Source: Coriobacteriales bacterium (GTDB lineage Bacteria; Actinomycetota; Coriobacteriia; Coriobacteriales; UBA8131). From it: a DNA stretch of 64,000 nucleotides. The stretch lies in contig JAIRQA010000040.1 in the NCBI GenBank assembly GCA_031256715.1, positions 16,736-80,735 on the forward strand, in the 5' to 3' direction. Of this stretch, positions 32,906 through 59,405 are shown one piece after another; the first letter of the stretch is position 1; every line of letters starts with the position of its first letter. Made by a program: the position numbers and the translations under genes. The notes below the pieces were generated by a model. It was not told where the DNA came from, ran no database searches, and saw only the letters and a program-made list of their open reading frames with translations.

Positions 32906-33075
32906 ATTTTACAAACTGCAATAATCTTTATTAAAAATTCTTTAAAACGACACACAATCTACATGTTCTCGTATGCAATCACTTGTGCTTTTTGCTAACA
33001 TAGCGGTGTTGGTTTTCCGTAATGTATGCTTGTAGGAGGGCACACAAAGTCTTTTGGAAAGGGGTTGCATTAATT

Positions 33076-34563: not shown

Positions 34564-36045
34564 CTAGCAACCATGCCTGTTAATATAGCTAAATAGCTCC
34601 TTGCGCTTGTGAATGCCAATTTTGCTATAAATATGTGCAATATGGGTGTTTACAGTATTTGTAGAGATTACCAATTTTTCTGCCACGGCAGCGGCATTAT
34701 AGCCATGAGCTATTAATGTGATAATTTCGGTTTCGCGGCAGGAAAGCGCGAACTCCTTAGCTATCTGTGTGCAGATGGTGTCAGTTTCTGAACTTGTGGT
34801 TGGCTTGCTGGTAGCGCTGATGATGTTGTACTCCTGACGAACAAGCGGTATGAGCAGAGAAACTGTAAGCACAATAAGCACAAGTGCTGTTAGCGGTACA
34901 AGCAGTTTAAAAGAATTGGCATCTAGAAGCCTTTCATATAGTATTGCTAATGTGTTGCCAACTGCTACTCCAAGTCGTATTGAGCCACCTGCAAGACCAA
35001 ACGCCATTTGTGGGCTAGCATATCCGCTTTGTGTTAAGCGAGCAAAATATATAGCTATTAAAATCTCAAATACCGATACTATCATTAAGGCAACAATAAA
35101 AGATGAAAAGTAGAGAAACTCGCCTGTTAGATACATTACGCCCACTAGGGCGGTAAGCACCAAAAGCCAATTGAACATGGTAAAGATATTAAAGTGCTTG
35201 GCGGCAATGGTTCCTAAAAGCGCCAACGCAAGTATAAAAAGGGCACCCGCGTAAACACCATAGGCAAAGCTATCCTCTACGGGTACTAATAATTCCCAAG
35301 GGACAATCGCGACAAAGAAATAGCACGTAGTACAAGATATGAATGAGATCAGACAAACAATGCCTATGCTTTGCATGCTGCGTTTTACGGAACTTTCGGG
35401 TAGAAGTATGGGAAACGCTAACTTGGCATCACTACGCTTAATATATAGCATAGAACCAGAAATAAGTGGCAATAAAGCTACCCAAACAGCGGCAAGTACT
35501 GGCGGCAGTATGCTTGCAAGAATAAGTGAAACCAAAAAACAGATGCCGTAGCTTGGCGCTATATGACGTATAGAGAAATGCGCCTTAACCTGAGCGTAGC
35601 GCTCTGCCCAAAGCAGCCAGAGTAAGGCGCTGGAAATTCCTAGACAGGCGCTACATAAATAGGCTGGTATCAAAGTTGCACCTTTGCTAACAATAAGAGT
35701 AAAAATTAGTGTTCCGGCACTTGCGCAGATACAGGAAAGCCAAAGTACAATAGGGTAATCGCAAAGATGCCGATTTTTGCCCAGAAAACGCGGCAGTGCG
35801 AACAAAACAACCGCGGAGCTTGACAAGTTTATCAGCCAGGAAAAAGTTATGGCATCATCAAGCAAAAAAGTGTCGGGAAAAATATTGGCAACAAACCAGA
35901 GGCAGTAATGCCAAGCCAGTAAGGTGGTTAAACCAAGATATTTAAGTTTTGGTTGCGAGGTTACGCCGTCATTAATCTGACTAGTTAGTTCTGTAGTTGG
36001 TTCAGTTTTCGCAGGAATTTGCTGGCGCATGTTCATCATCCTCAA
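34564..36045 (-). CDS. LuxR-family transcriptional regulator with a polytopic N-terminal membrane domain
   Basis: About 10 hydrophobic helices followed by a C-terminal GerE/LuxR HTH (RETEIITLIAHGYNAAAVAEKLVISTNTVNTHIAHIYSKIG). Divergent from the cai-like cluster. Confidence 0.85.
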   Translation of the reverse strand: MRMMNMRQQIPAKTEPTTELTSQINDGVTSQPKLKYLGLTTLLAWHYCLWFVANIFPDTFLLDDAITFSWLINLSSSAVVLFALPRFLGKNRHLCDYPIVLWLSCICASAGTLIFTLIVSKGATLIPAYLCSACLGISSALLWLLWAERYAQVKAHFSIRHIAPSYGICFLVSLILASILPPVLAAVWVALLPLISGSMLYIKRSDAKLAFPILLPESSVKRSMQSIGIVCLISFISCTTCYFFVAIVPWELLVPVEDSFAYGVYAGALFILALALLGTIAAKHFNIFTMFNWLLVLTALVGVMYLTGEFLYFSSFIVALMIVSVFEILIAIYFARLTQSGYASPQMAFGLAGGSIRLGVAVGNTLAILYERLLDANSFKLLVPLTALVLIVLTVSLLIPLVRQEYNIISATSKPTTSSETDTICTQIAKEFALSCRETEIITLIAHGYNAAAVAEKLVISTNTVNTHIAHIYSKIGIHKRKELFSYINRHGC

Positions 36046-36347
36046 CCTTCATTTTTTTCTGAATCTGTGTTGTTACACGATACATGATTGACATGCCTAA
36101 TAGTACATCACTAATTCGTGATTATCACATCATTAAAAAATAATTATTTGATAAATCGTGCAGATTTTATGATGACATTTTGGCAACGAGGCGCGATTCT
36201 GCATTTAGGACGCGTCCGCAAAGTAGTCAGAATCTAAGTACTTAGGGCGCATCCAAAAATATTTGTAAGGCATTAAAGTCACAACCGATGCGCATTTAAT
36301 AGCGAATCTAAAATGTGGCAACAACTAGCACCGAAGGAGGAAGGTTT

Positions 36348-37712
36348 ATGAAAGTAGAAAATTTAGAAAAAAATGTTCAGAAGCCCACAGGGAGAAACGC
36401 AGAAAAGAGCTATGACGAGCTAAGCAAAGGCCTGAAGTGGCTGTTGTTGATACTGGCTAGTATTGGTAGCTCCATCATTTATGCGCCAGCTTATCTTAAG
36501 GCGGTTTTTTATGATCCTTTGCAACAGGCATTAGGTGTAACCAACACAGAACTAGGAGCAGTGTTTGGTGCTTATGCTATTACTGCACTGATTTGCTACT
36601 TGCCTTCGGGAATTATCGCCGACAAAGTGCGCATGCGTACGCTGTCTTCTGTTGGCTTTATCTCTACAGCCATACTCACCTTTGTTTACGCGGCATTGCC
36701 CTCTATAGAGGTTCTCTACGTGATTTTTGTTCTTATGGGTGTGACCACTATTTTAATCTGGTGGGGTGTGCGCTACAAGCTGGTTCGTCTGGTTTCTAAA
36801 GAAGACGAATATCCCAAACGCATAGGTCTGTCTTACGGACTTTATGGCGTAGCCGGTCTGCTCATCGGTTTTGTTTCTACTGCTATTGTTGCTGCAGTTG
36901 GCGAGAACCTTGGTTTGGGCGTTTCAGTTTATCTAGGCTTTTTGGGTGCTATTATACTAGCACTTGGCATTCTCTCGCTAATCTTCATTCCCAAGTTTAA
37001 AGGAGAAATAAAGACTGGTGGTGGCTTTAATCTTTCAGAGTTTGTCTCTGCTCTAAAAAGTCCTGTTGTTTGGTTGGCGGCAATTTCTTTGTTCTTCGTT
37101 TACTTCTTCTACACTGGCGTGACCTATACCACGCCGTATCTTACCGGTATCTTAGGCGCGTCACTTGTGGTGACTACTGTCATCGCAAACATTCGTAATT
37201 ACGGCATCACCTTGCTCTCGGGCCCCATTTTTGGAGTTATCGCCAACAAGCTTAAGCCTTCGTTGGTAATCGTTGCCGGCTCATTGGTGTTTTGTGTTGC
37301 TCTGGCCGCGCTCATTTTCTTGCCGCAGATACCGGCCATGATTGTTGTCGCGGCAGTGTTAATAATACTTTTGGGCTTTATAGCCAATGGTGCCTTTGGT
37401 GTGGTTTCTGCCCAACTTACCGAAGGACATGTACCGCTGCACTATTTTGGCGCCGCGACCGGCATCTTGTCTATCATTGGTTTTTTGCCAGACACTTTTT
37501 CTAGCATCTGGTTTGGCGCCATCATGGACGCGCAATCAGATGCAGCTGGCGTGGTTGCTGCCTCTGCCTACGAGCAGATATTTCTGTTGTTAATAGCTGC
37601 CGCGGTTCTTGCCGCCATTTTCTCGCTTGTTCTTTTTCTTTACATCAAGCGTAATAAGGCTCGCCTGGCAGCCGCAGAAGCCGAGCAGGTAGCAGCTAAT
37701 AAAAACCAGTAG
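36348..37712 (+). CDS. MFS transporter
   Basis: About 12 predicted TM helices. GAAGGAGG RBS before ATG 36348. First gene of the cai-like cluster. Confidence 0.75.
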   Translation: MKVENLEKNVQKPTGRNAEKSYDELSKGLKWLLLILASIGSSIIYAPAYLKAVFYDPLQQALGVTNTELGAVFGAYAITALICYLPSGIIADKVRMRTLSSVGFISTAILTFVYAALPSIEVLYVIFVLMGVTTILIWWGVRYKLVRLVSKEDEYPKRIGLSYGLYGVAGLLIGFVSTAIVAAVGENLGLGVSVYLGFLGAIILALGILSLIFIPKFKGEIKTGGGFNLSEFVSALKSPVVWLAAISLFFVYFFYTGVTYTTPYLTGILGASLVVTTVIANIRNYGITLLSGPIFGVIANKLKPSLVIVAGSLVFCVALAALIFLPQIPAMIVVAAVLIILLGFIANGAFGVVSAQLTEGHVPLHYFGAATGILSIIGFLPDTFSSIWFGAIMDAQSDAAGVVAASAYEQIFLLLIAAAVLAAIFSLVLFLYIKRNKARLAAAEAEQVAANKNQ

Positions 37713-37763
37713 CGGCGCTTTAATCCTTCATAAAACAAAAAAACCAAGAGAGGAAATAAGAAC

Positions 37764-38897
37764 ATGGATTTTAAATTATCAGACGAGCAAGAACTTTTGG
37801 TAGAAAACGTTCGCGAGTTAATGCTGCGTGAAAACTGGGAGGCTTATTTTGCCGAATGTGACGCTACGCATAGCTATCCCGAGCGTTGGGTTAAGGAGCT
37901 TTGCGAGTTAGGTTTCGATCAAATCATGCTGCCAGAAGATCGCGGCGGCCTGGGACTTGGCGTAGTAACGTTGTTGGCTGTTTATGAAGAGCTTGGCAGA
38001 CATGGCGCTCCCACCTATGTGCTTTATCAGCTCCCTGGCTACGAGACCATTTTGCGAGAGGGTACCGAAGATCAGATAAATAAGGTCATGTCCTATCTGG
38101 GCACAGGTAAGCAAATTTGGAACTCTGCCTGCACCGAGCCGGGTGCCGGCAGCGATGTAGGTGGCTTACAGACTACTTACCAGCGCAAAGATGGCAAGAT
38201 TTACCTTAATGGACACAAGACCTTTATCACATCATCTGCTCATGTGCCCTATTTGGTGATAATGGCGCGCAATGCCGATGACCCGGATGTTTTTACCGAG
38301 TGGTTCGTAGACATGAGTTTACCTGGCATTAAAAAAGAGCCATTAGAGAAGTTAGGCCTGCGCATGGACAGTTGCTGCGATATTTACCTAGATAACGTAG
38401 AGCTAAGCGAAGCAGATATGTTTGGTATCGAAGGCAATGGCTTTAAGCGCGGTATTGGCGACTTCGACTTTGAGCGTTTCTTAGTAGGCGCCTGCGATTA
38501 CGGTACAGCGCTTTGTGCTTTTGAAGACGCTGCCCGTTACGCAAACGTGCGCGAGCAATTTGGTAAAACCATTGGGCGCTTTCAGCTTAATCAACTTAAG
38601 TTTTGCGAGATGGCCATTAAGATTAACGCAATGAAGAACATGCTTTACGAGACAGCTTGGAGCTACGACAACGGCAACATGACCAGCGCACAGGCAGCTA
38701 TGTGCAAATACTATTGCGCTAATGCCGCATTTGAGGTTGTAGATGATGCCATGCAAGTCATGGCTGGTGTGGCTGTTGCGGGCGAGCATCGCATCCAGCG
38801 TATTTGGCGCGACTTACGCGTAGATCGCGTTAGCGGCGGAACCGACGAAATGATGATTCTTACGGTGGCTAAGGGTATATTACGCAGTTTTAAATAA
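37764..38897 (+). CDS. caiA: acyl-CoA dehydrogenase, CaiA-like (crotonobetainyl-CoA reductase)
   Basis: Near-colinear with my recollection of E. coli CaiA: [11 protein letters not shown]...[11 protein letters not shown]...[12 protein letters not shown]...[10 protein letters not shown]...LGLRMDSCC...[18 protein letters not shown]. Confidence 0.8.
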
Positions 38898-38932
38898 TGC
38901 CCGCAATAGCGTCAACACTAATGCCCGCAATA

Positions 38933-39063
38933 AAGTTAGCTGCAAATTACCCAACGAAGCGTCAACAACCATGGCACTTCTCAACATAGCAAAAAAAGTC
39001 AACTGCAAAGTTGCCAACAAGCTATCCAATGAAGCTTCAACAACCATGGCACTTCTCAACATA
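38933..39063. repeat. about 60-bp imperfect direct repeat x2 in the caiA-caiB spacer
   Basis: ...GCGTCAACAACCATGGCACTTCTCAACATA and ...GCTTCAACAACCATGGCACTTCTCAACATA with related left halves. Confidence 0.8.
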
Positions 39064-39107
39064 ATAAAAAGTTAGCAACCTACAACAAATCTGAAAGGAA
39101 CATAAGC

Positions 39108-40319
39108 ATGAAACCTAGTACAAAAAAACCATCATTTGGCGTACTTGATGGCGTGAAGATAGTCTATTCGGCAGTGGAGCTGGCGGTTCCCAAAGCTTGC
39201 TGCATAATGGCCGAGTGGGGAGCCGATGTTATCTGGTTAGAGAACACTGGCGCGGGCGACACCATTCGTGACACGGCTTACGTCAAGCAGGCGGAGCGTC
39301 GTAATCAGCGCAGTGTTGCTTTAGACAATTTTTCTGACGAAGGCCGCGAGATTCTTTTTAAGCTCATCGCTGACGCCGACATTTTCATAGAGGCAAGCAA
39401 GGGAGGCACTTACGCCAAACGCGGTATTACAGATGAGCTGCTTTGGCAGTACAATCCCAAGCTGGTAATTGTTCACCTGTCAGGTTTTGGTCAAAGTGGC
39501 GATCCCAATATGGTTGCTCGCGCCGCCTACGATCTTACAGTAATGGCTTATAGCGGTTACATGAGTCAGAATGGCACGCAAGAACAGCCCATGAATCCAG
39601 GCCCTTATGCTGGCGATTACTTTAATACTTTAATGGTTGTAAGTTCGTCTTTGGCAGCTTTACACAAGGCAAATGCTACCGGTATTGGCGAAAGCATAGA
39701 TTTGGCGATGTTTGAGACTTTACTTGCGATTGGTCAGTATTATCTGGTGGACTATCTTAACGCGGGCATAATTTGGCCGCGTCCAGGTGCGCGAAACCAG
39801 AACCTTTGTGCCATTGGCGAGTATAAATGCAAAGACGGTTTCATTGGGCTTTGTGTTTATGGCGTGCAGCAAAACAAGTACCTGCTGGAGGCAATTGGTT
39901 TAGGCGAGCTTTGGGGAAGCGAAGATTACCCAGAAGATACCAGTGCGCTTTGGCTCTCTAGTCCTAAAGCCAAGCTTATAGAGCAAAAACTAGAAGAATA
40001 TCTGGCCTTGCAAAATGTAGAAGATGTAGAGAAGGACTTCGCGTCCCACCGCATTGCGGCGCAAAAAGTTATGGAGTTTAGCAACTTGGTAGATGAGGAG
40101 CATCTTGCCAAGCGCGAGGTTTGGCTAAATTGGGAAACTGCCGATGGCGAACAGTTTAAGGGTCTTAATGTCTTTCCCCGTTTTAAGAATAATCCAGGAC
40201 AGGTTTGGCGACCCATGCCCGAACAAGGCTATGACACCAAAGACGTGCTTGAACGCTTGGGCTACTCTGCAGAAGATATCAAGCGTTTGGCAGCGGCCGG
40301 TACTATTAAGCTAGCATAA
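39108..40319 (+). CDS. caiB: type III CoA-transferase, CaiB-like (carnitine/gamma-butyrobetainyl-CoA transferase)
   Basis: AEWGADVIWLEN, IFIEASKGG, NPKLVIVHLSGFGQ and FPRFKNNPGQVWRPMP parallel E. coli CaiB motifs (AEWGAEVIWIEN, PKFKNNPGQIWRGMP). Confidence 0.8.
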   Translation: MKPSTKKPSFGVLDGVKIVYSAVELAVPKACCIMAEWGADVIWLENTGAGDTIRDTAYVKQAERRNQRSVALDNFSDEGREILFKLIADADIFIEASKGGTYAKRGITDELLWQYNPKLVIVHLSGFGQSGDPNMVARAAYDLTVMAYSGYMSQNGTQEQPMNPGPYAGDYFNTLMVVSSSLAALHKANATGIGESIDLAMFETLLAIGQYYLVDYLNAGIIWPRPGARNQNLCAIGEYKCKDGFIGLCVYGVQQNKYLLEAIGLGELWGSEDYPEDTSALWLSSPKAKLIEQKLEEYLALQNVEDVEKDFASHRIAAQKVMEFSNLVDEEHLAKREVWLNWETADGEQFKGLNVFPRFKNNPGQVWRPMPEQGYDTKDVLERLGYSAEDIKRLAAAGTIKLA

Positions 40320-40343
40320 TATAAAAAGAAAGTGAGAGATGGT

Positions 40344-41195
40344 ATGAAAATTATCGCATGCTGCAAGGCTGCTCCTGAAGAGCAAGACATCGTTGTTAGG
40401 GACGATGGCAGTTTAGACTTTAGCAGGGCAGACTATAAGTTTGGTTCCTACGATCTTAACGCAATTGAAGCTGCACGCGTATTAGCAGATCAGGTTGGTG
40501 GCGAGGTTATTGGTCTTAGCGTGGGTTCAAGCGAGCTAGCAAACAGCAAGCTGCGCAAGGATGCTTTGTCGCGCGGCTTAGACGAGTTGGTGGTTGTGAC
40601 TCGTTCGTCTGTAGGCGAGGATGCAAATGACAGTGTGTCGGATTTAAGTATGTCGGATTTAAGTGTGTCGAATTTGGACAGCTATCAGACAGCCAAACTG
40701 TTGGCAGACGCTTTAGAACAAATGGGTGACTACGACCTTGTTTTGTGTGGAGCAGGCTCCTCAGATTTCTACGCGCAGCAGGTAGGCAATCAGTTAGGGG
40801 CACTACTTGGTATAACTTCGCTTAGCGCCATAAACAGTATAAAGCCTGACGTAGAATCTGATGCCGAGATTTCTGAAGCAGCTACGAACATAGACTCTGT
40901 CATTGTTCAACGACTCTTAGAACAAGAAGTGCAGTGTGTTCGCGTAAAGCTTCCAGCTGTTCTAAGTGTTACATCTGGCATCAATGTGCCGCGTATCGCC
41001 GGAATGAAAGATATTTTGGCTGCCGGCAAAAAACCGGTTAAGGAATTAGTTGCTTTAGGGACGCCGGAAACTAGCACTCAGACCATATCGGTAAAGGCGC
41101 CGCCTGCGGCTAGTCGCAAGCAGGAAATTATTCAGGGTGATGCCAATGAGTCTGTAGCGCGGTTGCTAGAACTTGCATCGTCTGTTCTGCGTTGA
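40344..41195 (+). CDS. fixA: electron-transfer flavoprotein beta subunit, FixA-like
   Basis: MKIIACCKAAPEEQDIVV..DGSLDFSRADYKFGSYDLNAIEAA closely parallels the E. coli FixA N-terminus. Small S/D/L repeat insert at about 40610-40690. Confidence 0.85.
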   Translation: MKIIACCKAAPEEQDIVVRDDGSLDFSRADYKFGSYDLNAIEAARVLADQVGGEVIGLSVGSSELANSKLRKDALSRGLDELVVVTRSSVGEDANDSVSDLSMSDLSVSNLDSYQTAKLLADALEQMGDYDLVLCGAGSSDFYAQQVGNQLGALLGITSLSAINSIKPDVESDAEISEAATNIDSVIVQRLLEQEVQCVRVKLPAVLSVTSGINVPRIAGMKDILAAGKKPVKELVALGTPETSTQTISVKAPPAASRKQEIIQGDANESVARLLELASSVLR

Positions 41196-41225
41196 GTAAA
41201 GCCGATTATAAGAAAGAGGTCATAA

Positions 41226-42362
41226 ATGTCAAATTATTCAATTTGGGTAGTAGCCCACGAAGCAGACGCAGCAGCAGAACTTGTTTCCGGAGCACTTTGT
41301 TTAAGCAGCAATGTGAATGCTGTAACTTTTGGTGGCGAGGCAGTAGCCAAGGCCGCACAGGCGCAAGGGGCATTAACGGTATTAAGTGTTAACGCTATTG
41401 ACACACCTGCTACTGACGTGTCTGCTATGGGTACGCCTGCTACTGACGTGTCTGCTGTTGGCACATCTGGGCCAGATAATACTTTAAAAAACTGCTTGCC
41501 AGAAAATCATAGTAAAGCTTTGGCAAAGTTGCTTCAGGAACGCAATTCTAAACTAACTATCTTTAGCGCTACGGCTACAGGTCGTTTGATGGCAGGTATG
41601 GTTGCCAGCCACTTGGGCACTAGTGCTTATAATGCTGCGTCTATAACTATTAATGATGACACACCTGTCATAACAAGCATGGTCTATGGCGGATGCGCCA
41701 TCGCGACTCGCAGGCTTTTAAGCTCACAGGCAGTTATTACTGTAGGTGCTGGCGTTTTAGGGGCGGTATTGCCAGAGTCGCAAGAGCCGCAAGCGTCTGC
41801 ATTGTCAGCGGCATTGCCGGAGTCGCAAGAGCCGCAAGCGTCTGCATTGTCATCGGCATTGCCAGAGGCGGCAGAGTCAGAGCTAGCGTTGTCAGAGCCG
41901 CAAGCGTCTGGCAGCATAGAGCAGATTGATTTAAGTGTTAATGACAATGCTGCAGTTGTGCTTGAAGTAAAGCCGCGTAAGACAGAAAGTGTAAACCTTG
42001 CTGCAGCAAAACGTGTCATTGGCGTTGGTCGTGGCTTTGCCGCCAAGGAAGATTTAGAGTTAGCGTTTAACTTAGCTAGCAAGCTAGATGCCGAGCTTGC
42101 ATGTAGCCGTCCTATTACAGAAAGCGAGAACTGGATGGCTCGCGAGCGCTACATTGGTGTATCTGGTGTTGTGGTTAAGCCTGAATTATATATTGCTTTG
42201 GGTATCTCTGGTCAGATTCAGCACATGGTTGGCGTGAATCAGGCGAAAACCATCATCGCCATTAACAAGGACAAGAACGCTCCTGTATTCAAACAGGCCG
42301 ATTATGGCATTGTTGGCGATATCTATGAGGTTTTGCCGGTCTTAACATCAGCGCTTTCTTAG
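41226..42362 (+). CDS. fixB: electron-transfer flavoprotein alpha subunit, FixB-like, with two tandem-repeat insertions
   Basis: C-terminal ELACSRPITESENWMARERYIGVSG..KPELYIALGISGQIQHMVG...IIAINKDKNAPVF..ADYGIVGD as in FixB/EtfA. Inserts at 41393-41470 and 41765-41915. Confidence 0.85.
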   Translation: MSNYSIWVVAHEADAAAELVSGALCLSSNVNAVTFGGEAVAKAAQAQGALTVLSVNAIDTPATDVSAMGTPATDVSAVGTSGPDNTLKNCLPENHSKALAKLLQERNSKLTIFSATATGRLMAGMVASHLGTSAYNAASITINDDTPVITSMVYGGCAIATRRLLSSQAVITVGAGVLGAVLPESQEPQASALSAALPESQEPQASALSSALPEAAESELALSEPQASGSIEQIDLSVNDNAAVVLEVKPRKTESVNLAAAKRVIGVGRGFAAKEDLELAFNLASKLDAELACSRPITESENWMARERYIGVSGVVVKPELYIALGISGQIQHMVGVNQAKTIIAINKDKNAPVFKQADYGIVGDIYEVLPVLTSALS

Positions 42363-42469
42363 ACGCAATACAGCAGTTAAAGCATGGGGCTTTTTAAAAA
42401 GCAAAAGCAAAAGTCATAAGAACAGTTAAGGGACAATTAAGGGACAATTAAGGTGAGTTAAACGCAATC

Positions 42470-44035
42470 ATGAGTGACATTATTGGCAACACAACCATAG
42501 GCGAGCTTTGGCAGGATGCTGCGTGTACCTACGCAAACAAGACATTTCTAGTCTTCGAGGCCGTAGATGGCAGCAAGCAATCCTATAGTTATGGCAGCTT
42601 TTATGCCCAGATTTGCCGTAGCGCTAATCTTTTTTACTCGTGCGGCATTAGACAAGGTGACATGGTTTTAATGCAGCTATGTAACTCTGCAGAGTTTCTG
42701 ATGGTGTTTTTTGGCTTAAATTTAATAGGCGCGGTTGTTGTGCCTTTAGCTTCTAAAAGTTCGCAACACGAGTTACAGCAGGCACTTTTGGTTTGTAAAC
42801 CAAAGTGGGCAGTTGTTAACGCTGAGCATGTTCAGGCTTATTCAGAAATAGCTAAGGCGGGTGAGTACCTATGTGGTGGTGTCTTTACAGTTAACTCTAA
42901 AGGTAAAGTTAGCTCAATCAAACAAGCCAACATTTTAGATTTTAATGCCAAGCTGTCCGGTGCGAGCGATTCGGTTCCGCCAACAACTGTTACAGACAAC
43001 ATGCAACTTGCAGAGTTGCTCTTTACCTCCGGAACAACCGCCGCTCCAAAAGCCGTAATGATCACACACGCCAACTTGGTTTTTAGTGGTATCTATGGCA
43101 ATTGGCAAACCAGCATGCGCTCTGACGACCGGCTCCTTAGCACCATGCCCGCATGTCATTCAAATTTTCAGATGGCAGCGTTAATGCCGGTTTTGGTGGC
43201 GGGTGCCACACTTATTTTGGTAGAACGCTATAGCGCCAGTCGTTTTTGTTCACAACTACGCCGACATCGCGCAACTATCACACAATTAATATCCATGATG
43301 GTGCGCACGCTGTTGCTTCAACCGCCAAAAGCAGATGACGCACAAAACGACTTACGTGAGGCGCTCTACTTTATGCCTTTATCTGATGTCGAGAAAAACG
43401 CATTTGAGCAGCGCTTTAACGCACGTCTGATGAACACTTATGGCTCTACAGAGACTATAGGATGGGCTGTTACTGATTCTCCATTTGGCAAGCGCTGCTG
43501 GCCAAGCGTTGGTAAAGCAGGATTGGGTTACGAAGTTGGTATTTTTAACGGTGATGGTAAAGAGGTACAACCAGGCGAAGTGGGCGAGTTTCGCGTTAAG
43601 GGCATAGCAGGTCGCACTCTAGCGTTGGGATATTATCAGCAACCTGAGCTTAGTGCTCAGATCATAGATAAAAACGGCTGGATGCGCACCGGTGACAAAG
43701 GTTATATGAATGCAGATGGCTGGTTTTATTTCTGCGATCGTCAGGCAAATATTATTAAACGCGCTGGCGAAAATGTTTCTGCGACAGAGGTAGAGACTGT
43801 ACTTTGTGAGCATCCAGATATCAGTGAAGCTGCGGTTATCGGCGTACATGATGAACTTCGTGATGAAGCGGTTAAGGCATTTGTACTGCCGGTGAGCGGT
43901 GCTTTTCTCGACAAAGAAGAAATAAAACAATGGTGTGCTAGTAAGCTAGCAAGCTATAAAATACCAACAGAGATTGAGTTTGTGAGCGAGTTTCCGCGTA
44001 CCGTGAGTATGAAGATAGAAAAGCGACTTTTGTAG
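42470..44035 (+). CDS. caiC: acyl-CoA ligase, CaiC-like (crotonobetaine/carnitine-CoA ligase)
   Basis: LFTSGTTAAPKAVMITH AMP-binding motif, YGSTET and TGD..Y...G.FYF.DR. Overall colinear with E. coli CaiC (IIG......W.D......KT...). Confidence 0.78.
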   Translation: MSDIIGNTTIGELWQDAACTYANKTFLVFEAVDGSKQSYSYGSFYAQICRSANLFYSCGIRQGDMVLMQLCNSAEFLMVFFGLNLIGAVVVPLASKSSQHELQQALLVCKPKWAVVNAEHVQAYSEIAKAGEYLCGGVFTVNSKGKVSSIKQANILDFNAKLSGASDSVPPTTVTDNMQLAELLFTSGTTAAPKAVMITHANLVFSGIYGNWQTSMRSDDRLLSTMPACHSNFQMAALMPVLVAGATLILVERYSASRFCSQLRRHRATITQLISMMVRTLLLQPPKADDAQNDLREALYFMPLSDVEKNAFEQRFNARLMNTYGSTETIGWAVTDSPFGKRCWPSVGKAGLGYEVGIFNGDGKEVQPGEVGEFRVKGIAGRTLALGYYQQPELSAQIIDKNGWMRTGDKGYMNADGWFYFCDRQANIIKRAGENVSATEVETVLCEHPDISEAAVIGVHDELRDEAVKAFVLPVSGAFLDKEEIKQWCASKLASYKIPTEIEFVSEFPRTVSMKIEKRLL

Positions 44036-44258
44036 GTATTGGCTATGTGCCTTGCAAGCGGCTAATTAAAGCGGTGCCAGGCATGCTTAAGCAAAGGTAG
44101 GTAATGGTTGGTCGAGGTAGGTAAGAGCAGGTAAAGGTAGTGAAGCCAAAGGTAGGCAAGGGTAGGTCGAGGTAGGTAAGAGCAGGTAAAGCTAAACAGA
44201 GTTTAGAAACAAGTAAAACAAGTAAAACAAGTAAATTTTAGTGAAAGGAAGTAACATC

Positions 44259-45131
44259 ATGGCAATCAGCACAGAAATCGTGGGCAAGGAATTTGGACCT
44301 TTTGTACGCGAATACACTTTTAGGGATTTGGAGATATGCGCTTTAGGTTGTGGCGCAGGTTTTGATGGCAAGACTGACCTAGAATACATTAACGAGGTTG
44401 ATCCCGCCGCGCCTAAGTTAAAGGTGCTGCCAATTTTTGGCGTGCCACTTACGGTGCACGAAGAGATGACTAAGACGCTTGATTATGGTTACAATTACGC
44501 TGGGTCGCTGCACTATGGTTTCGAGATTTTATTTCACGCGCCATTTAAGATGAATGATCGCATAGAGACGTTTGTTACTCAAGACGCTCTTTACGATCGC
44601 GGCGAGGGACGTGGTTGTCTTTCTAAGCAGACAGGCCGCTCATATAGTGCCGATGGCACCCATCTGTGCACAACAGAGACCTGGGATTGCTGCATTTTCG
44701 ATGGTGGCTGGGGTGGGCCTGCCGCTCCTAAAGATATAGTAGAAATGCCTGAACGCAAGCCCGATATCGTTGTTCAGGAAGTTTTTCCTCTTAACCAGCC
44801 TCTTATCTATCGCTTGATGGGCGATTGGCACCAGCAGCACATAGATTGGTCATATACCAAGCAAACTGGCCTTGAGCGTCCAATTGCGCACGCTATAAGC
44901 TATGCGGGAGTTGTTATGCGTCATGCCATAGCCAACTATTTTCCGGGTGAGCCTGAGCGTATGACTCGCTTTAAAACACGCGTAACCTCACCGCTTTTGC
45001 CAGGCACAATTTTACATACACGTCTTTGGCAAGTTGGTCAGAATGAATTGCGCTTTGCTCTTTATGATGCCGATGCAGATGAGAAGCAAAGCAAGCCGCA
45101 TCTTAACTTTGGCATTATTCAGTGGAAGTAG
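44259..45131 (+). CDS. MaoC-like double hot-dog (R)-specific enoyl-CoA hydratase/dehydratase
   Basis: About 290 aa. N-terminal VGKEFGPF..EYTFRDL..CALG is typical of the MaoC_dehydrat_N half, and the C-terminal half has a P(L)IYRL(M)GDWHQQHID hot-dog signature. It occupies the slot where CaiD would be expected. Confidence 0.65.
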   Translation: MAISTEIVGKEFGPFVREYTFRDLEICALGCGAGFDGKTDLEYINEVDPAAPKLKVLPIFGVPLTVHEEMTKTLDYGYNYAGSLHYGFEILFHAPFKMNDRIETFVTQDALYDRGEGRGCLSKQTGRSYSADGTHLCTTETWDCCIFDGGWGGPAAPKDIVEMPERKPDIVVQEVFPLNQPLIYRLMGDWHQQHIDWSYTKQTGLERPIAHAISYAGVVMRHAIANYFPGEPERMTRFKTRVTSPLLPGTILHTRLWQVGQNELRFALYDADADEKQSKPHLNFGIIQWK

Positions 45132-45141
45132 CATTAATCTT

Positions 45142-46482
45142 ATGAGCGGCGTTAACGACACTAAAGATAAGGTCATGCTAGACGATGTGGGCATGTCACC
45201 TTTTTTGCGCAGGGTAACGATTTTTGCCAGCGGTGGTCCGTTTTTAGATGGATATGTACTTGCGATTATTGGAGTTGCCTTAGTTCAGCTAACGCCACAA
45301 CTACAGATGACTGCTCAAGAGACAGCACTTACCGGAGTGGCGGCATTGGCGGGTTTGTTTTTAGGCACTTTGGTGGGAGGTTATATTACAGATCTCTTGG
45401 GTCGCAAGGTTATGTTCACAATTGACATAGCTGCTATTGCGGCAATATCTATTGTTAGCATATTTGTAAGTTCGCCTGTAGAGCTGATTATCATGCGTCT
45501 GCTTATTGGCGTGGCAATTGGTGCCGACTACCCTATAGCGACATCACTGGTGGCAGAATTTACGCCTGGTCGCTATAGGGCAATATCTATGGGCGTTTTG
45601 GCAGCTATGTGGTACGTTGGAGCGACATTTGCCGGTCTAGTTGGCTTTCTCTGCATCAATCTAGACGATGGCTGGAAGTGGATGCTGGGCAGTTCTATTC
45701 TGCCTTGTTTGCTAATATTTCTTGGTCGCTTAGACATTCCGGAGTCTCCACGTTGGCTTAATCGTAAGGGTCGAACAGAAGAAGCAACAATGATAGTTCA
45801 CAGGCTCTTTGGTATGCAAGTAGAGCTAGAGAAAGAAGCAGCCCAAAAGACGCGCTATCGCAAACTATTCACGCATGGCTATTTTGGACGCGTTATTTTT
45901 GTTGGTACCATCTGGCTTTGTCAAGTTGTGCCAATGTTTGCCATCTATACCTTTGGACCTCAGATTATGGAAGCTTTTGGCTTAAGTTCTGGACACGAAG
46001 CAATTTTGGGCGACATCGCTATTAGCCTTTTTTTTCTTGCCGGCTGCATACCAGCGATGTATCTACTAAACAGTCTGGGCAGACGTCCAATGCTTATTGG
46101 CAGTTTTGCGATGATGACTTTAACCCTACTGGTGCTGGGGATATATCCCGATGCAGGCATAGTCATAGTTGTGTCGTTGTTTGCCCTTTACGCGTTTTTT
46201 AGTGGAGGTCCGGGCATCATGCAGTGGCTTTATCCAAATGAGTTGTTCCCTACAGATATCCGCGCTTCGGCGGTGGGTGCGGCTATGGCGTTCTCGCGTA
46301 TAGGTACGGTTGTCTCTACATATGCTTTACCAATGTTCATGGTGACCTATGGCGTGGGATCTGTGATGCTTGTTGGTGCTGGCATATCAGTTGTCGGTTT
46401 GCTGGTGAGCATATTTTTTGCGCCAGAGACAAAGGGACGCTCATTAGTTCAGACAAGTGCCTTAGATGATGGCAAGCATTGA
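45142..46482 (+). CDS. MFS transporter (sugar-porter-like)
   Basis: 12 TM. LGRKVMF-type loop, PESPRWL motif and ELFPTDIRASAVG. ATG 45142 lies just after the upstream stop, and the track start overlaps the MaoC gene. Confidence 0.75.
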   Translation: MSGVNDTKDKVMLDDVGMSPFLRRVTIFASGGPFLDGYVLAIIGVALVQLTPQLQMTAQETALTGVAALAGLFLGTLVGGYITDLLGRKVMFTIDIAAIAAISIVSIFVSSPVELIIMRLLIGVAIGADYPIATSLVAEFTPGRYRAISMGVLAAMWYVGATFAGLVGFLCINLDDGWKWMLGSSILPCLLIFLGRLDIPESPRWLNRKGRTEEATMIVHRLFGMQVELEKEAAQKTRYRKLFTHGYFGRVIFVGTIWLCQVVPMFAIYTFGPQIMEAFGLSSGHEAILGDIAISLFFLAGCIPAMYLLNSLGRRPMLIGSFAMMTLTLLVLGIYPDAGIVIVVSLFALYAFFSGGPGIMQWLYPNELFPTDIRASAVGAAMAFSRIGTVVSTYALPMFMVTYGVGSVMLVGAGISVVGLLVSIFFAPETKGRSLVQTSALDDGKH

Positions 46483-46675
46483 TGCAGTGTATGCTACGCG
46501 GTGATGGCAAGTATGGCAGACGGCGATGCCAAGCGGTGATGGCAAGTATGGCAAGTGGCGGCAAAAAGTAGCGGTGGCAAGTATGGCAAGCAATGATGCC
46601 AAGCGGTGATGGCAAAACCCCAAGTGCGAAGATGAGCGGCGACGGTGAGCAATGATGCCTTGGATGGCAAGTAAG
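46465..46675. repeat. degenerate tandem repeats (GATGGCAAG / GGTGATGGCAAGTATGGCA words) between the MFS gene and fixC
   Basis: GCGGTGATGGCAAGTATGGCA and close variants recur at least 5 times. Confidence 0.8.
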
Positions 46676-46724
46676 CTAACAAGCTAGTATGTTAGTATAA
46701 GATTATAATATAAAGGAGTTTGTA

Positions 46725-48014
46725 ATGGCAGATTTTGACGCAATTGTAGTAGGTTCGGGTTGTGCGGGCGCGGTGGCTGCCCATGAGCTTGCAAGTGCCC
46801 AAAAAAACACATTAGTAATAGAACGTGGCGAACGCAATGGTGCAAAGAACATGTCGGGCGGACGCCTATATACACACTCGCTTGCTGCTGTGTTTCCCGA
46901 GTATAAGACGGAAGCGCCGCTTGAGCGTAGGATTGCTCACGAGCGCTTATCGTTTATCACAGACGATGCCTGTACAACTGTAGATTTTTCTTCGGGGCAA
47001 ATGCTTGTGCCAAATTCTGATTCTTATTCTGTACTTAGGGCAGAGTTTGACGAGTGGCTTTCTAGTAAAGCAGAGTCGGCAGGTGCCGAGTATATCAATG
47101 GTATAGCAGTAGAAGGATTGCTTAAAGACGACAGTGGTCGCGTGATTGGTGTAAGAGCCGGAGATGATGAAATAAGCGCTGATATTGTGATTCTTGCCGA
47201 TGGCGTAAACTCGCTTTTGAGCAAAGAAGCAGTTGGTTTTAAGGCGCCTTTGCCAAGCACTATGGCTGTGGGTATCAAGCAAGTAATCGAGCTGCCAGAG
47301 GCGGTTATTAGCGACCGCTTGTTATCACAAGACGGCGATGGCGCTGCATGGCTCTTTGTTGGCGATGCGACACATGGTCACATTGGCGGTGGCTTTATGT
47401 ATACCAATAGAGCTTCTATTTCTCTGGGATTGGTGGCAACAATTTCTGATCTCTTTACAGCCAAACGTCCAATATATCAGATGTTGGAAGATTTAAAGGC
47501 GCATTCGGCAGTTGCACCATTAATTAAGGGCGGCAAAGTTGTAGAGCACTCTGGTCATATGGTACCAGAGGGTGGTCTAAAGATGATGCCGCCACTTACT
47601 GCAGATGGTGTTATGTTGGCAGGCGAATCCGCTATGATGTGTATAAATCTTGGTTATATGGTGCGCGGCATGGATTATGCTATTGCGGCAGGTATGCATG
47701 CTGGGCGAGCGGCTGCCGCCGCTTTAAATAAAGGCGACACATCTGCCGCTGGTTTGGCTGATTACCAAAAAGCGCTGGAAGATAGCTTTGTACTTCAGGA
47801 TTTAAGGCAGTTTTCCGGATTCCCGCATTTTATGGAGAGTACGACGCGTTTATTTAAGGAGTATCCACAGATGCTTAGCGATGTCATGAATACACTGTTT
47901 GTTGTGGATGGGCGTCCAGTGGCACCGCTAAAGAAATCACTAAAACCCATTGTTAAACAGGTGGGCTTAATAAACATGCTTAAGGATGTCAGAGGAGGTA
48001 TAAAAGCATTATGA
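46725..48014 (+). CDS. fixC: FAD-dependent ETF-quinone-oxidoreductase-like protein FixC
   Basis: FDAIVVGSGCAGAVAA, VIERGERNGAKNMSGGR, ILADGVNS and GGFMYTN...SLGLV are colinear with E. coli FixC. Confidence 0.85.
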   Translation: MADFDAIVVGSGCAGAVAAHELASAQKNTLVIERGERNGAKNMSGGRLYTHSLAAVFPEYKTEAPLERRIAHERLSFITDDACTTVDFSSGQMLVPNSDSYSVLRAEFDEWLSSKAESAGAEYINGIAVEGLLKDDSGRVIGVRAGDDEISADIVILADGVNSLLSKEAVGFKAPLPSTMAVGIKQVIELPEAVISDRLLSQDGDGAAWLFVGDATHGHIGGGFMYTNRASISLGLVATISDLFTAKRPIYQMLEDLKAHSAVAPLIKGGKVVEHSGHMVPEGGLKMMPPLTADGVMLAGESAMMCINLGYMVRGMDYAIAAGMHAGRAAAAALNKGDTSAAGLADYQKALEDSFVLQDLRQFSGFPHFMESTTRLFKEYPQMLSDVMNTLFVVDGRPVAPLKKSLKPIVKQVGLINMLKDVRGGIKAL

Positions 48015-48397
48015 GTGCAAAGAGCAACACAATAACGGTGGCAAATGAAAACTCATCAAATGATTTTGGCTTAGAAAAAGGGTTAAAAACGGCCATCGTA
48101 ACTGCAATTGATTCATTAACGGTAAACACTGACGAATATCTGGCACTTAATAAATATGAGGTTGATGAGGCAAATGCCCATATAGAACTAATAGATAATC
48201 CCAGTGAAGAAGAGTTTTTAAAACTTGTTCGCGTTTGTCCGGCCGCCCTTTATAAAATAGACGCTGAAGGCAAACAAAGCTTCGATTACGCCGGCTGCCT
48301 TGAGTGCGGCACATGTCGTATTGCTTGTGGAGACACAATAATTGCCAAGTGGGAAAATCCCCAACCCACCATGGGCATTATTTATCGGTACGGCTAA
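48011..48397 (+). CDS. fixX: ferredoxin-like protein FixX (with an N-terminal extension)
   Basis: CPAALYK......FDYAGCLECGTCRI....I..WE.P....GI.YRYG matches the E. coli FixX C-terminal pattern. ATGA overlap with fixC. Confidence 0.85.
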   Translation: MSAKSNTITVANENSSNDFGLEKGLKTAIVTAIDSLTVNTDEYLALNKYEVDEANAHIELIDNPSEEEFLKLVRVCPAALYKIDAEGKQSFDYAGCLECGTCRIACGDTIIAKWENPQPTMGIIYRYG

Positions 48398-51414: not shown

Positions 51415-51416
51415 AC

Positions 51417-59358: not shown

Positions 59359-59405
59359 TTCTCAACATTATAAGCGGATAGATTACCAACAGATAGGAGG
59401 TTCAG

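Follow-up and report, generated by a model that had tools for sequence, protein, structure and literature searches.

A cai/fix gene cluster of the Actinomycetota type in a Coriobacteriales bacterium, with a probable role in carnitine or crotonobetaine reduction

A 64-kb stretch of DNA from a Coriobacteriales bacterium (hereafter, the window) carries at positions 34564-48397 ten co-directional genes and a divergently encoded membrane LuxR regulator. Very probably, these form a complete cai/fix cluster of the Actinomycetota type, for which L-carnitine and/or crotonobetaine is the electron sink and gamma-butyrobetaine is released. An earlier note on this DNA had proposed such a carnitine/crotonobetaine to gamma-butyrobetaine module in a Coriobacteriia host; the source of the DNA agrees with that host, and the module is supported by CaiA and CaiB proteins that pass curated cut-offs, by relatives linked to CaiT, and by a gene set shared, as far as the contigs extend, at all of the 80 best related loci (out of 179 species genomes with relatives of the MaoC gene). 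The cluster is not a new system but a further example of a type that is frequent among Gram-positive bacteria and was noted in dairy propionibacteria. We found no experimental evidence in the literature on carnitine reduction in this organism or any Coriobacteriia.

Gene content and control region

All genes listed in the earlier note are intact, and their order (MFS1, caiA, caiB, etfB, etfA, caiC, MaoC-type hydratase, MFS2, fixC, fixX) and orientation are as it gave them, with the caiABC genes and the fixA-, fixB-, fixC- and fixX-like genes interleaved on one strand:

34564..36045, minus strand: polytopic membrane one-component regulator of the LuxR/GerE family (Pfam GerE match)
36046..36347, no strand: divergent intergenic control region between regulator and MFS1 (read from sequence)
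36348..37712, plus strand: MFS1, MFS_1-family transporter, 454 aa (Pfam MFS_1)
37764..38897, plus strand: caiA, crotonobetainyl-CoA reductase with acyl-CoA dehydrogenase fold, 377 aa (NCBIfam NF002885)
39108..40319, plus strand: caiB, family III CoA-transferase, carnitine : gamma-butyrobetainyl/crotonobetainyl-CoA (NCBIfam NF002914)
40344..41195, plus strand: etfB, FixA/YdiQ-like electron-transfer flavoprotein beta subunit (Pfam ETF)
41226..42362, plus strand: etfA, FixB/YdiR-like electron-transfer flavoprotein alpha subunit, 378 aa (Pfam ETF and ETF_alpha)
42470..44035, plus strand: caiC, betaine (carnitine/crotonobetaine)-CoA ligase (near miss to NCBIfam NF005947)
44259..45131, plus strand: MaoC-family double hot-dog hydratase, 290 aa (Pfam MaoC_dehydratas)
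45142..46482, plus strand: MFS2, sugar-porter-family MFS transporter, YaaU orthologue (Pfam Sugar_tr)
46725..48014, plus strand: fixC, ETF:quinone oxidoreductase-like flavoprotein (NCBIfam NF007450)
48011..48397, plus strand: fixX, ferredoxin-like protein, 128 aa (identity to YdiT/FixX)
48430..48448, plus strand: terminator-like hairpin 3' of fixX (consensus scan)

Likely start sites are 36348 for MFS1, 40344 for etfB, 44259 for the MaoC gene and 45142 for MFS2, with the longest open reading frames over-extended; the overlap between the MaoC and MFS2 genes is present at the level of open reading frames only. The fixX start and fixC stop overlap by 4 nt, as they do in E. coli and relatives. The cluster likely ends at the hairpin (7 pairs, 5 of them G-C), which was the top-listed terminator-like site in the consensus scan, and the molybdenum oxidoreductase operon downstream is not conserved beside cai clusters at the loci compared. 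Using TBLASTN with E. coli queries (E ≤ 1), we identified no homologues of CaiT, CaiD, CaiE or CaiF in the 64-kb window, in keeping with the absences reported earlier.

The regulator is 493 aa long as its longest open reading frame, and its ATG start is likely at 36039. Pfam identified a C-terminal GerE/LuxR helix-turn-helix (residues 434-486, E = 2.3e-13), and about 9-10 hydrophobic segments lie between residues 66 and 399, which upholds its description as a polytopic membrane protein. The divergent regulator in the Raoultibacter cai locus aligned to it with 46% identity, and the one in a Propionibacteriaceae locus with 44%; a membrane LuxR regulator occurs at 30 of the best 80 loci, every time upstream and divergent. 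The gap between the regulator and MFS1 is ~300 bp long and AT-rich, with a GGAGG ribosome-binding site 5' of the ATG at 36348, and a consensus promoter scan returned 19 matches (21.8 expected). Elsewhere in the window, a second membrane LuxR regulator is encoded with a reductase operon, which fits a respiratory-reductase lifestyle.

Enzymes, electron-transfer proteins and transporters

The similarity to enterobacterial proteins that had been noted by eye was confirmed by BLASTP, which aligned the CaiA/B/C and FixA/B/C/X proteins to those of E. coli K-12 with 33-68% identity. CaiA shares 68% identity with its E. coli namesake, compared with 44% with YdiO, and scored 713 bits against the NCBIfam equivalog NF002885 (cut-off 540). 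NCBI and JGI records of a protein identical to it use the name crotonobetainyl-CoA dehydrogenase. CaiB, 45% identical to E. coli CaiB, scored 685 bits against equivalog NF002914 (cut-off 413), and its best solved-structure match is E. coli CaiB (1XK6, E = 4e-113); it retains an Asp where the E. coli TADYF motif aligns, whose Asp we take to be the catalytic Asp169. CaiC aligned with 40.5% identity to E. coli CaiC versus 29% to FadK, and its score with NF005947 (638.8 bits) is 12 bits short of the cut-off of 651; the next model scored 334 bits.

Judged by sequence, the electron-transfer proteins belong to the Fix/Ydi ETF family without strict orthology to FixABCX; their identity to YdiQRST equals or exceeds that to FixABCX. 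EtfB (FixA 41%, YdiQ 40%) falls under the cut-offs of both the YdiQ-type model (259 vs 338) and the FixA model (206 vs 219), and it has low-complexity insertions specific to this window. EtfA (YdiR 42%, FixB 33%) has two in-frame repeat insertions, ~65 aa in total, that occur in no orthologue examined. FixC, with 48% identity to FixC and to YdiS alike, passes the YdiS-type model NF007450 (488 bits, cut-off 466) and scored 450 against 610 with the FixC model NF007542; its best PDB match is Thermotoga FixC (7KOE, E = 4e-66), and ETF-QO (2GMH) was matched as well. FixX (YdiT 55%, FixX 46%) has a ~30 aa N-terminal extension and a weak Fer4_10 match.

The MaoC-family protein matched 3KHP and the human MFE-2 hydratase 2 domain (1S9C) in the PDB (E about 1e-25), and its AlphaFold model (pLDDT 84.5, pTM 0.87) aligned to 1S9C with a Foldseek TM of 0.84-0.85. 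It shares with hydratase 2 the double hot-dog fold and the Asp/His pair, which is invariant in 45 homologues; however, it is 22-27% identical to these enzymes, its motif is G-D-x-H-x-Q-H rather than G-D-x-N-P-x-H, with an invariant His at the canonical Asn position, and it is a dedicated component of cai clusters. Gene position and co-occurrence lead us to infer that it acts as the carnitinyl-CoA dehydratase in place of CaiD, as the earlier note had suggested. Its gene adjoins caiC at 76 of the 80 best loci, and the contigs of the other four stop <500 bp from it. In Enterobacillus tribolii, fixXCBA stands divergent from caiT-caiA-caiB-caiC-MaoC in an otherwise E. coli-like locus (CaiT 79% and CaiA 85% identical to those of E. 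coli), and CaiD and CaiE homologues were not detected within the 20-kb locus; because the MaoC gene fills the caiD slot there, a non-homologous replacement of CaiD is supported.

MFS1 (Pfam MFS_1, E = 3e-24) aligned to the first gene of cai clusters with 71-80% identity for the Propionibacteriaceae type and 53-66% for Coriobacteriia; it showed no similarity to YaaU, and a search for a homologue of solved structure found none. It occupies the position of the P. freudenreichii MFS gene tied to acylcarnitine depletion (PMC11007987) and is a candidate carnitine/acylcarnitine importer. Over 428 aa, MFS2 (Pfam Sugar_tr, E = 1.8e-59) shares 61% identity with YaaU, an uncharacterised transporter whose gene lies directly 3' of fixX in E. 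coli K-12, and 74 related loci contain a YaaU-like gene (46-60% identity to YaaU). MFS2 is a candidate carnitine/gamma-butyrobetaine carrier. The earlier proposal that two MFS transporters stand in place of CaiT thus holds in part: both are present and CaiT is not, but MFS2, as the YaaU orthologue, is not foreign to an E. coli-type set.

Related loci and alternative readings

Hosts of related loci include Eggerthellaceae, Actinomycetaceae, Propionibacteriaceae, Cytobacillus and Sporomusa, and all eleven genes of the window cluster have same-cluster orthologues in Raoultibacter, Propionibacteriaceae and Cytobacillus. Gordonibacter, Paraeggerthella, Adlercreutzia equolifaciens and Trueperella pyogenes are examples of cultured bacteria with the orthologous cluster. 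The window order caiA-caiB-etfBA-caiC-MaoC-MFS2-fixCX is that of four Propionibacteriaceae loci (L004, L076, L080 and L084). A "rewired" layout was overstated as a novelty, the arrangement being standard in Actinomycetota and described in P. freudenreichii (PMC11007987). The cluster is a mosaic: the MaoC protein (81-83% identity) and FixC/FixX (about 70%) are nearest to Coriobacteriia, and MFS1 and EtfB to the Propionibacteriaceae type. A distribution that is patchy, mosaic and spread across phyla makes horizontal acquisition, also raised earlier, plausible, but the even GC content (0.44-0.49 across the whole window) gives no sign of recent transfer.

Hot-dog MaoC/hydratase-2 enzymes are normally specific for D-(3R)-hydroxyacyl-CoA, whereas L-(R)-carnitine is sterically an L-(3S)-type alcohol, the crotonase type of substrate. 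Given this opposite configuration at C3 of the expected L-carnitinyl-CoA, replacement of CaiD needs unusual stereochemistry or a second hydratase encoded elsewhere, which could be a crotonase outside these 64 kb; a generic crotonase is encoded ~3 kb away at 21 Eggerthellaceae loci. An alternative is that this chemistry serves another substrate, be it a D-configured 3-hydroxy betaine, another quaternary-amine, 3-hydroxy or enoyl acid, or crotonobetaine only, and that the MaoC enzyme keeps the canonical D-(3R) stereochemistry. We regard this as improbable. The (R)-specific family of the hydratase, with a human hydratase 2 domain as its top structural match and the Asp/His pair retained, is consistent with it, as are the His that replaces the canonical Asn, the marginal shortfall of CaiC, and closest relatives (among the best matches listed) in termite-gut metagenome-assembled genomes (MAGs), where the carnitine supply is not known; yet CaiA is 60-87% identical across related clusters in addition to its similarity to E. 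coli CaiA, and the Enterobacillus MaoC gene lies within a caiT-caiABC operon. BCCT carriers are betaine-specific, and in Sporomusa rhizae the gene for one stands ahead of caiA-caiB-etfBA-fixCX-caiC-MaoC-MFS2, which ties MaoC-containing clusters to quaternary amines. The different 3-hydroxy or enoyl acid that the earlier note offered as an alternative is unlikely because relatives are linked to CaiT, and the metabolites tied to the P. freudenreichii cluster are L-configured milk carnitines (PMC11007987).

It is very improbable that the pathway runs oxidatively, from gamma-butyrobetaine through crotonobetaine to a carnitine that is assimilated, with electrons passed to the quinone pool. An acyl-CoA dehydrogenase, an ETF and an ETF-quinone oxidoreductase homologue would make up a classical oxidative chain, FixC matches ETF-QO besides FixC, and MaoC orthologues also occur in the aerobic Actinomycetota Cellulomonas, Georgenia and Curtobacterium. 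Nevertheless, the host resembles an anaerobe respiring via molybdenum-dependent reductases, acyl-CoA oxidation by menaquinone is thermodynamically unfavourable, and genes for further carnitine breakdown were not found nearby. The homologous E. coli genes are reductive, and carnitine reduction there requires fixA and fixB (Walt and Kahn 2002, as cited in a later paper). A general short/medium-chain enoyl-CoA reductase of the ydiO/ydiQRST/fadK kind, unrelated to betaines, is hardly credible: the ETF, FixC and FixX are slightly nearer to YdiQRST and FixC passes the YdiS-type model, but the dehydrogenase and ligase are closer to CaiA and CaiC than to YdiO and FadK, CaiT is encoded at related loci, and the CoA-transferase, a CaiB, belongs to family III, whereas the ydi locus of E. 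coli encodes YdiF, which has the annotation acetate-CoA transferase and is presumably of another family.

For reductive use of carnitine or crotonobetaine, MFS1 and the YaaU-type MFS2 would carry betaines in and out. By orthology to the E. coli enzymes, CaiC would prime the cycle through ATP-dependent betainyl-CoA synthesis, and CaiB would move CoA from the product onto incoming substrate. The MaoC-family protein would interconvert carnitinyl-CoA and crotonobetainyl-CoA. Going by genetics in E. coli and by the Fix/Ydi family, EtfBA would hand electrons to CaiA and FixC/FixX may feed EtfBA, either from the menaquinol pool or through NADH-dependent bifurcation. The membrane LuxR regulator probably senses substrate and turns the genes on. 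An Aes-like alpha/beta-hydrolase is encoded at 60 of the 80 best loci; the window cluster has none, which suggests that the input is free carnitine or crotonobetaine and not acylcarnitines.

Comparison with known systems

In the same gut pathway, the step that follows, from gamma-butyrobetaine to trimethylamine, is carried out by bbu/gbu of Emergencia timonensis (Rajakovich et al. 2021, PMC8364193). Its substrates are likewise CoA thioesters of betaines derived from carnitine, and it uses a flavoenzyme resembling acyl-CoA dehydrogenases together with CaiB-like transferases; however, by curated model, the window flavoenzyme is a CaiA reductase and not the trimethylamine-eliminating BbuA, and bbu-carrying genomes are without cai genes, and conversely (PMC8364193). 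The E. coli ydiO-ydiQRST-fadK genes also group an acyl-CoA dehydrogenase, ETF, ETF-QO-like and ferredoxin-like proteins and an acyl-CoA ligase, and YdiQRST share 40-55% identity with the ETF/FixCX proteins of the window, whereas a Cai affiliation is clear for its dehydrogenase, its ligase and its CoA-transferase.

With E. coli cai/fix and yaaU, the window shares CaiA, CaiB, CaiC and a YaaU-type MFS transporter at the identities given above, and an ETF, ETF-QO-like and ferredoxin-like set with 33-48% identity to the Fix proteins. In E. coli, these genes form two divergent operons, caiTABCDE and fixABCX, whereas the window has a single co-directional cluster with the ETF genes inserted between caiB and caiC, lacks the BCCT antiporter CaiT, the crotonase CaiD, CaiE and CaiF, and has a double hot-dog MaoC hydratase after caiC; it also encodes an additional MFS_1 transporter, as well as a membrane LuxR regulator.

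A cluster of the window's architecture was described in P. freudenreichii (Roder et al. 2024, Genome Biol 25:93; PMC11007987). The likeness, which is one of architecture, comprises an MFS transporter, caiABC, an enoyl-CoA hydratase, a second MFS transporter and fixABCX; according to the authors, caiD and caiT are absent, with an MFS transporter as well as an enoyl-CoA hydratase instead (PMC11007987). Compared with that cluster and its relatives in Propionibacteriaceae, Actinomycetaceae and Eggerthellaceae, the window lacks the Aes-like hydrolase of 60 of the 80 loci, which is linked to acylcarnitine hydrolysis; its host is a Coriobacteriales MAG, and its cluster is mosaic. Where P. freudenreichii strains had the complete cluster, acylcarnitines were depleted, and carnitine and putative gamma-butyrobetaine increased (PMC11007987).

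Gene content of the cluster

The cluster occupies window positions 34564-48397 and consists of a regulator gene and ten genes encoded divergently from it.

Predicted genes of the cluster, with window coordinates and strand; all were assigned from the ORF listing and profile searches.
34564-36045, minus: membrane LuxR regulator, 493 aa, with ~10 hydrophobic segments and a C-terminal GerE/LuxR helix-turn-helix
36348-37712, plus: MFS1, an MFS_1 transporter
37764-38897, plus: caiA
39108-40319, plus: caiB
40344-41195, plus: etfB
41226-42362, plus: etfA
42470-44035, plus: caiC
44259-45131, plus: MaoC-family protein
45142-46482, plus: MFS2, a sugar-porter-type MFS transporter
46725-48014, plus: fixC
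48011-48397, plus: fixX

The starts of MFS1, etfB, the MaoC gene and MFS2 were set inward of the longest ORFs based on ribosome-binding sites, orthologue alignment and the lengths of called genes in relatives, and all reading frames in the cluster are intact. The ORFs and profiles bear out the earlier note's description of cai and fix genes interleaved on one strand, as all are present and ten lie on the plus strand after the divergent regulator. A scan identified a terminator-like hairpin 3' of fixX; the promoter scan did no better than shuffled sequences (19 matches versus 21.8 expected), and Rfam, whose only match was a tRNA some distance away, showed no riboswitch within the cluster. A 387-aa ORF (33022-34185) without a Pfam match separates the regulator gene from an NAD(P)HX dehydratase gene.

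We used BLASTP to compare the window proteins with those of the E. coli K-12 cai/fix region; identities ranged from 33% to 68%, in agreement with the likeness to enterobacterial CaiA, CaiB, CaiC and Fix proteins first noticed by eye. CaiA (68% identity) scored 713 bits against the curated model NF002885 (cut-off 540), and CaiB (45%) scored 685 bits against NF002914 (cut-off 413). Among solved structures, CaiB is closest to E. coli CaiB (E = 4e-113), and the window protein has an Asp at the position aligned to Asp169, which we take to be the catalytic residue of the E. coli enzyme. CaiC (40.5%) fell just short of the NF005947 cut-off, with 638.8 bits versus 651, and its next model scored 334. 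Based on additional alignments, CaiA is 44% identical to YdiO and CaiC 29% identical to FadK; judged by sequence, both are clearly of Cai type rather than Ydi/FadK.

All four FixABCX protein types are present in the window (FixA 41%, FixB 33%, FixC 48% and FixX 46% identical to E. coli). Scores for the Fix-specific models were below their cut-offs (FixA 206 versus 219, FixB 218 versus 549, FixC 450 versus 610), and these electron-transfer proteins are as close or closer to YdiQRST, with EtfA 42% identical to YdiR and FixX 55% identical to YdiT.

Using TBLASTN with E. coli queries (E ≤ 1), we identified no match to CaiT, CaiD, CaiE or CaiF in the 64-kb window. Whereas the E. coli cai/fix genes include caiT, caiD, caiE and the activator gene caiF, the window has two MFS genes instead of caiT, a MaoC-family gene in the position after caiC, and neither CaiE nor CaiF; its regulator is the polytopic membrane LuxR protein, as the earlier note had proposed. 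The identities, the curated-model scores and these absences together confirm the original observation of a cai/fix set with different accessory parts.

Distribution, gene order and genomic surroundings

We scanned an alignment of the MaoC protein against one genome per species; this analysis identified relatives in at least 179 species genomes, among them those of Eggerthellaceae cultured from the human gut and of host-associated Actinomycetaceae. Window proteins were then mapped onto the best 80 of the 179 MaoC loci, with counts limited by contig ends. Within these 80 loci, caiC adjoins the MaoC gene in 76, and in the remaining four the MaoC gene lies less than 500 bp from the contig end; caiA was found in 66, caiB in 68, MFS2 in 72, MFS1 in 63, and the ETF and FixCX genes in ~50. 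The pattern of a MaoC gene and an MFS transporter after caiC thus recurs in 72-76 of the 80, and the regulator occurs in 30, all in Coriobacteriia or the Propionibacteriaceae-type group. Hosts include Gordonibacter, Paraeggerthella, Eggerthella sinensis, Enteroscipio, Adlercreutzia, Raoultibacter and Lancefieldella, as well as Schaalia, Actinomyces, Trueperella, Arcanobacterium, Varibaculum, Winkia and Propionibacteriaceae.

Cluster context was also drawn from relatives of the window CaiA. A Raoultibacter MAG, a Propionibacteriaceae MAG and Cytobacillus sp. Hz8 carry the same gene set, usually with an added esterase, and orthologues of all proteins of the cluster, both transporters, the MaoC protein and the regulator among them, are present in these loci. 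Among the comparison loci L002, L004 (Propionibacteriaceae) and L006, counterparts are 53-81% identical to the window MaoC protein and 55-64% identical to MFS2. The layout is the norm for Actinomycetota, as seen in the best 80 of the 179 loci, and is already published (PMC11007987).

The search for the same order in related Coriobacteriia showed that the gene set is conserved. Most Coriobacteriia loci have the order caiA-caiB-caiC-MaoC-MFS2-etfBA-fixCX; the window order, with etfBA between caiB and caiC and fixCX after MFS2, is common to Propionibacteriaceae-type loci and the closest relative, L007. Identities across the cluster are mosaic: MFS1 (71-80%) and EtfB (~55%) are closest to the Propionibacteriaceae type, and MaoC (81-89%) and FixC/FixX (~70%) are closest to Coriobacteriia. 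This mosaic points to past exchange between lineages rather than recent import. GC content stays between 0.42 and 0.50 throughout the window; it does not shift at the cluster, and there is no island signature. Of the suggestion that the cluster was rewired and possibly horizontally acquired, the sequence comparisons therefore favor exchange between lineages and speak against a recent arrival.

An Aes-like esterase (NF007547, 432 bits versus a cut-off of 389) lies between MFS1 and caiA in 60 of the best 80 of the 179 loci, and Cytobacillus has a CocE/NonD hydrolase in this position. The gene is missing from the window and from several Coriobacteriia MAGs, which are presumably from termite guts. 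This pattern of presence and absence hints at different input substrates, namely acylcarnitines where the esterase is encoded and free betaines where it is not.

In-frame tandem repeats at 40632-40675, 41407-41456 and 41763-41867 form low-complexity insertions in EtfB and EtfA that occur in no orthologue examined, including that of L007. These insertions are part of a genome-wide abundance of tandem repeats, which are unusually frequent in intergenic and coding sequence (38 TRF rows in 64 kb). Others occupy the intergenic gaps of the cluster (34355-34488, 44093-44191 and 46491-46615), and a 65-nt duplication (62271-62400) spans a gene junction.

The window also carries housekeeping genes (FtsH, TilS-like, PurA and TrkA) as well as two more operons for molybdopterin oxidoreductases, one of which has a divergent membrane LuxR regulator of its own; this fits a respiratory generalist resembling Eggerthellaceae. 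The MaoC gene has its nearest relatives in the Coriobacteriia genome bins Rs511, Emb289, Nt197 and Lab288, whose isolate names we take to denote termite-gut MAG samples, and the window host is probably an arthropod-gut Coriobacteriales.

Directly downstream of fixX, positions 48781-52999 encode an 877-aa molybdopterin oxidoreductase, a 4Fe-4S protein and an NrfD-type membrane subunit; the first of these unexpectedly matches the Pfam OCRE domain (residues 794-830). We rejected this operon as part of the cai system, since its position next to the cluster is not conserved in Raoultibacter, Propionibacteriaceae or Cytobacillus. The region 57313-63840 has the same layout of regulator and reductase operon as the cai locus: a second polytopic LuxR/GerE regulator is encoded on the minus strand (57313-58977), divergently from a Tat-signal molybdopterin oxidoreductase (59406-62312), which is followed by a small ORF (62380-62964) and a DmsC-like anchor (62968-63840). 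Elsewhere in the window, an AbiEii-family nucleotidyltransferase toxin gene (29329-30180) and a small overlapping upstream ORF (28724-29332) look, by sequence, like a type IV toxin-antitoxin pair.

Candidate hydratase and transporters

Pfam matched MaoC in only the C-terminal half of the 290-aa protein; however, over its full length the protein aligns with M. tuberculosis 3KHP and with the hydratase 2 domain of human MFE-2 (1S9C). AlphaFold modeled it from 45 homologues with a pLDDT of 84.5 and a pTM of 0.87, and Foldseek superposed the model on 1S9C with a TM score of 0.84-0.85 (E = 2.7e-23). Based on this superposition, the predicted structure is that of a double hot-dog hydratase 2. Enzymes of this class share the motif G-D-x-N-P-x-H, in which Asp and His are catalytic. 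Within the homologue alignment the motif is G-D-x-H-x-Q-H: Asp189 and His194 are invariant, the canonical Asn position holds His191, also invariant, and the Pro position is occupied by Gln or Pro.

Two loci associate the MaoC gene with betaine-specific transport and with the position of caiD. In Enterobacillus tribolii (Enterobacterales; L088, 296-10852), the arrangement is that of E. coli: fixABCX is divergent from caiT-caiA-caiB-caiC, which is followed by a MaoC-type gene with 54% identity to that of the window; CaiT and CaiA are 79% and 85% identical to the E. coli proteins, and we detected no CaiD or CaiE homologue in the 20-kb locus. In Sporomusa rhizae (L089, 924-12590), a BCCT gene precedes caiA-caiB-etfBA-fixCX-caiC-MaoC-MFS2. 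We read these arrangements as a probable non-orthologous displacement of CaiD by the MaoC protein, which supports the proposal that a MaoC-type gene stands in place of the crotonase gene.

In 21 Eggerthellaceae loci from human and animal gut hosts, a crotonase with ~40% identity to E. coli CaiD is encoded ~3 kb downstream of MFS2 on the opposite strand (e.g., L019, 15552-16337, minus). NCBIfam ranks it as a generic EchA19-like enoyl-CoA hydratase (CaiD model, 178 bits versus a cut-off of 500). We did not count it as a hidden CaiD because neither the window nor most of the loci carry it; it remains a caveat to displacement by the MaoC protein.

Stereochemistry bears on the substrate of the MaoC protein. 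L-Carnitine is designated (R) by CIP only because CH2-N outranks CH2-COO; spatially it corresponds to the L-(3S)-hydroxyacyl-CoA that is the crotonase product, so CaiD as a crotonase fits L-carnitine. The product of hydratase 2 is the D-(3R)-hydroxyacyl-CoA, corresponding to D-carnitinyl-CoA. Established chemistry thus poses a puzzle with three ways out: an unusual stereochemical course in this clade, another hydratase, or a different substrate. If the MaoC protein acts on L-carnitinyl-CoA, then the reaction would have the opposite stereochemical outcome to that of every characterized hydratase 2 or would proceed through a cis-enoyl intermediate, and the G-D-x-H-x-Q-H motif could be a signature of such a change.

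Aligned over 428 residues, MFS2 shares 61% identity with E. coli YaaU, whose gene lies directly after fixX (L090, 108-1439). YaaU-like genes with 46-60% identity to YaaU occur at 74 related cai/fix loci in Actinomycetota and Bacillota, and in Enterobacillus a partial MFS2-like match (58 aa at 48%) sits beside fixX in a gene cut by the end of the locus. Our literature search found yaaU described as poorly characterized and found no link to carnitine. By these alignments, MFS2 is a conserved, overlooked companion of cai/fix loci, and its identity to YaaU together with the 74 related loci suggests a carnitine-pathway role for E. coli yaaU.

Of the claim that two MFS transporters stand in place of CaiT, the absence of CaiT holds; MFS2, as a YaaU orthologue, is not simply a replacement, and MFS1 has no counterpart at the E. 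coli cai/fix locus. We found no solved-structure relative of MFS1. In Propionibacterium freudenreichii, an MFS transporter encoded in the same position as MFS1 is statistically associated with acylcarnitine depletion (PMC11007987). Kinship of MFS2 with OCTN2, the mammalian carnitine carrier, was dismissed, as the match was weak and late (E = 9e-16), behind sugar and phosphate porters.

Taken jointly, the MaoC protein as a non-homologous CaiD replacement acting on L-carnitinyl-CoA and YaaU/MFS2 as a conserved carnitine or gamma-butyrobetaine carrier of cai/fix loci in three phyla form a tentative proposal, about which we have somewhat more doubt than confidence.

Proposed pathway and comparison with known systems

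Among the readings considered, a module converting carnitine or crotonobetaine to gamma-butyrobetaine, as originally proposed, best accommodates the CaiA and CaiB scores and the presence of CaiT or BCCT genes in Enterobacillus and Sporomusa. MFS1 and MFS2 would mediate uptake and export, and CaiC and CaiB, by orthology to characterized enzymes, would carry out CoA activation and recycling. The MaoC protein, by position and co-occurrence, may dehydrate carnitinyl-CoA, and CaiA, by orthology, would catalyze reduction to gamma-butyrobetainyl-CoA. At the family level, EtfBA and FixC/FixX would supply electrons from menaquinol or NADH; the best match of FixC is the bifurcating Thermotoga FixC (7KOE). 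Control may fall to the membrane LuxR regulator, given its conserved divergent arrangement. In E. coli, carnitine reduction reportedly requires fixA and fixB (Walt and Kahn 2002).

Gamma-butyrobetaine is an intermediate of the gut route from dietary L-carnitine to trimethylamine/TMAO. Its formation is generally attributed to facultative Proteobacteria and their cai operon (PMC8364193), and models of all six caiTABCDE genes underlie the gamma-BMGC database (PMC11857547). Surveys requiring the full enterobacterial operon would miss part of the community capacity because this cluster type lacks caiT, caiD and caiE yet occurs in at least 179 species genomes. If the MaoC and YaaU readings are true, then many Gram-positive gut and host-associated bacteria make gamma-butyrobetaine uncounted by caiTABCDE-based screens, with Eggerthellaceae, Actinomycetaceae (Trueperella, Schaalia) and Propionibacteriaceae as candidates, and its formation in guts would not be confined to Proteobacteria. 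Our literature search found no report tying Eggerthellaceae or Actinomycetaceae to carnitine reduction. The window itself adds little beyond one more host lineage; the leads from the comparison are a hot-dog hydratase for CaiD, with its stereochemical puzzle, and a function for E. coli yaaU.

The bbu/gbu system has a BbuA-type TMA-eliminating flavoenzyme and paired CaiB-like transferases; the window encodes one CaiB, and the curated model assigns its flavoenzyme to CaiA. The closest published description is that of P. freudenreichii, whose caiABC and fixABCX genes form a single cluster that lacks both caiD and caiT (Roder et al., Genome Biol 2024, PMC11007987); in yogurt, strains with the full cluster lowered acylcarnitines and raised carnitine and putative gamma-butyrobetaine (PMC11007987). 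In the window, too, the caiABC and fixABCX genes are clustered and caiD and caiT are missing; caiC is followed by an enoyl-CoA hydratase (MaoC-type in the loci examined) and an MFS transporter. Unlike in P. freudenreichii, no alpha/beta-hydrolase gene, the partner of the MFS gene in the pair associated with acylcarnitines, follows the leading MFS1, which is separated from caiA by 52 bp. The link to P. freudenreichii is one of architecture only, because the 120 best matches of the MFS1 protein search included no named P. freudenreichii protein. As this architecture is common in Actinomycetota and already published, the window cluster is a further example of a known cluster type.
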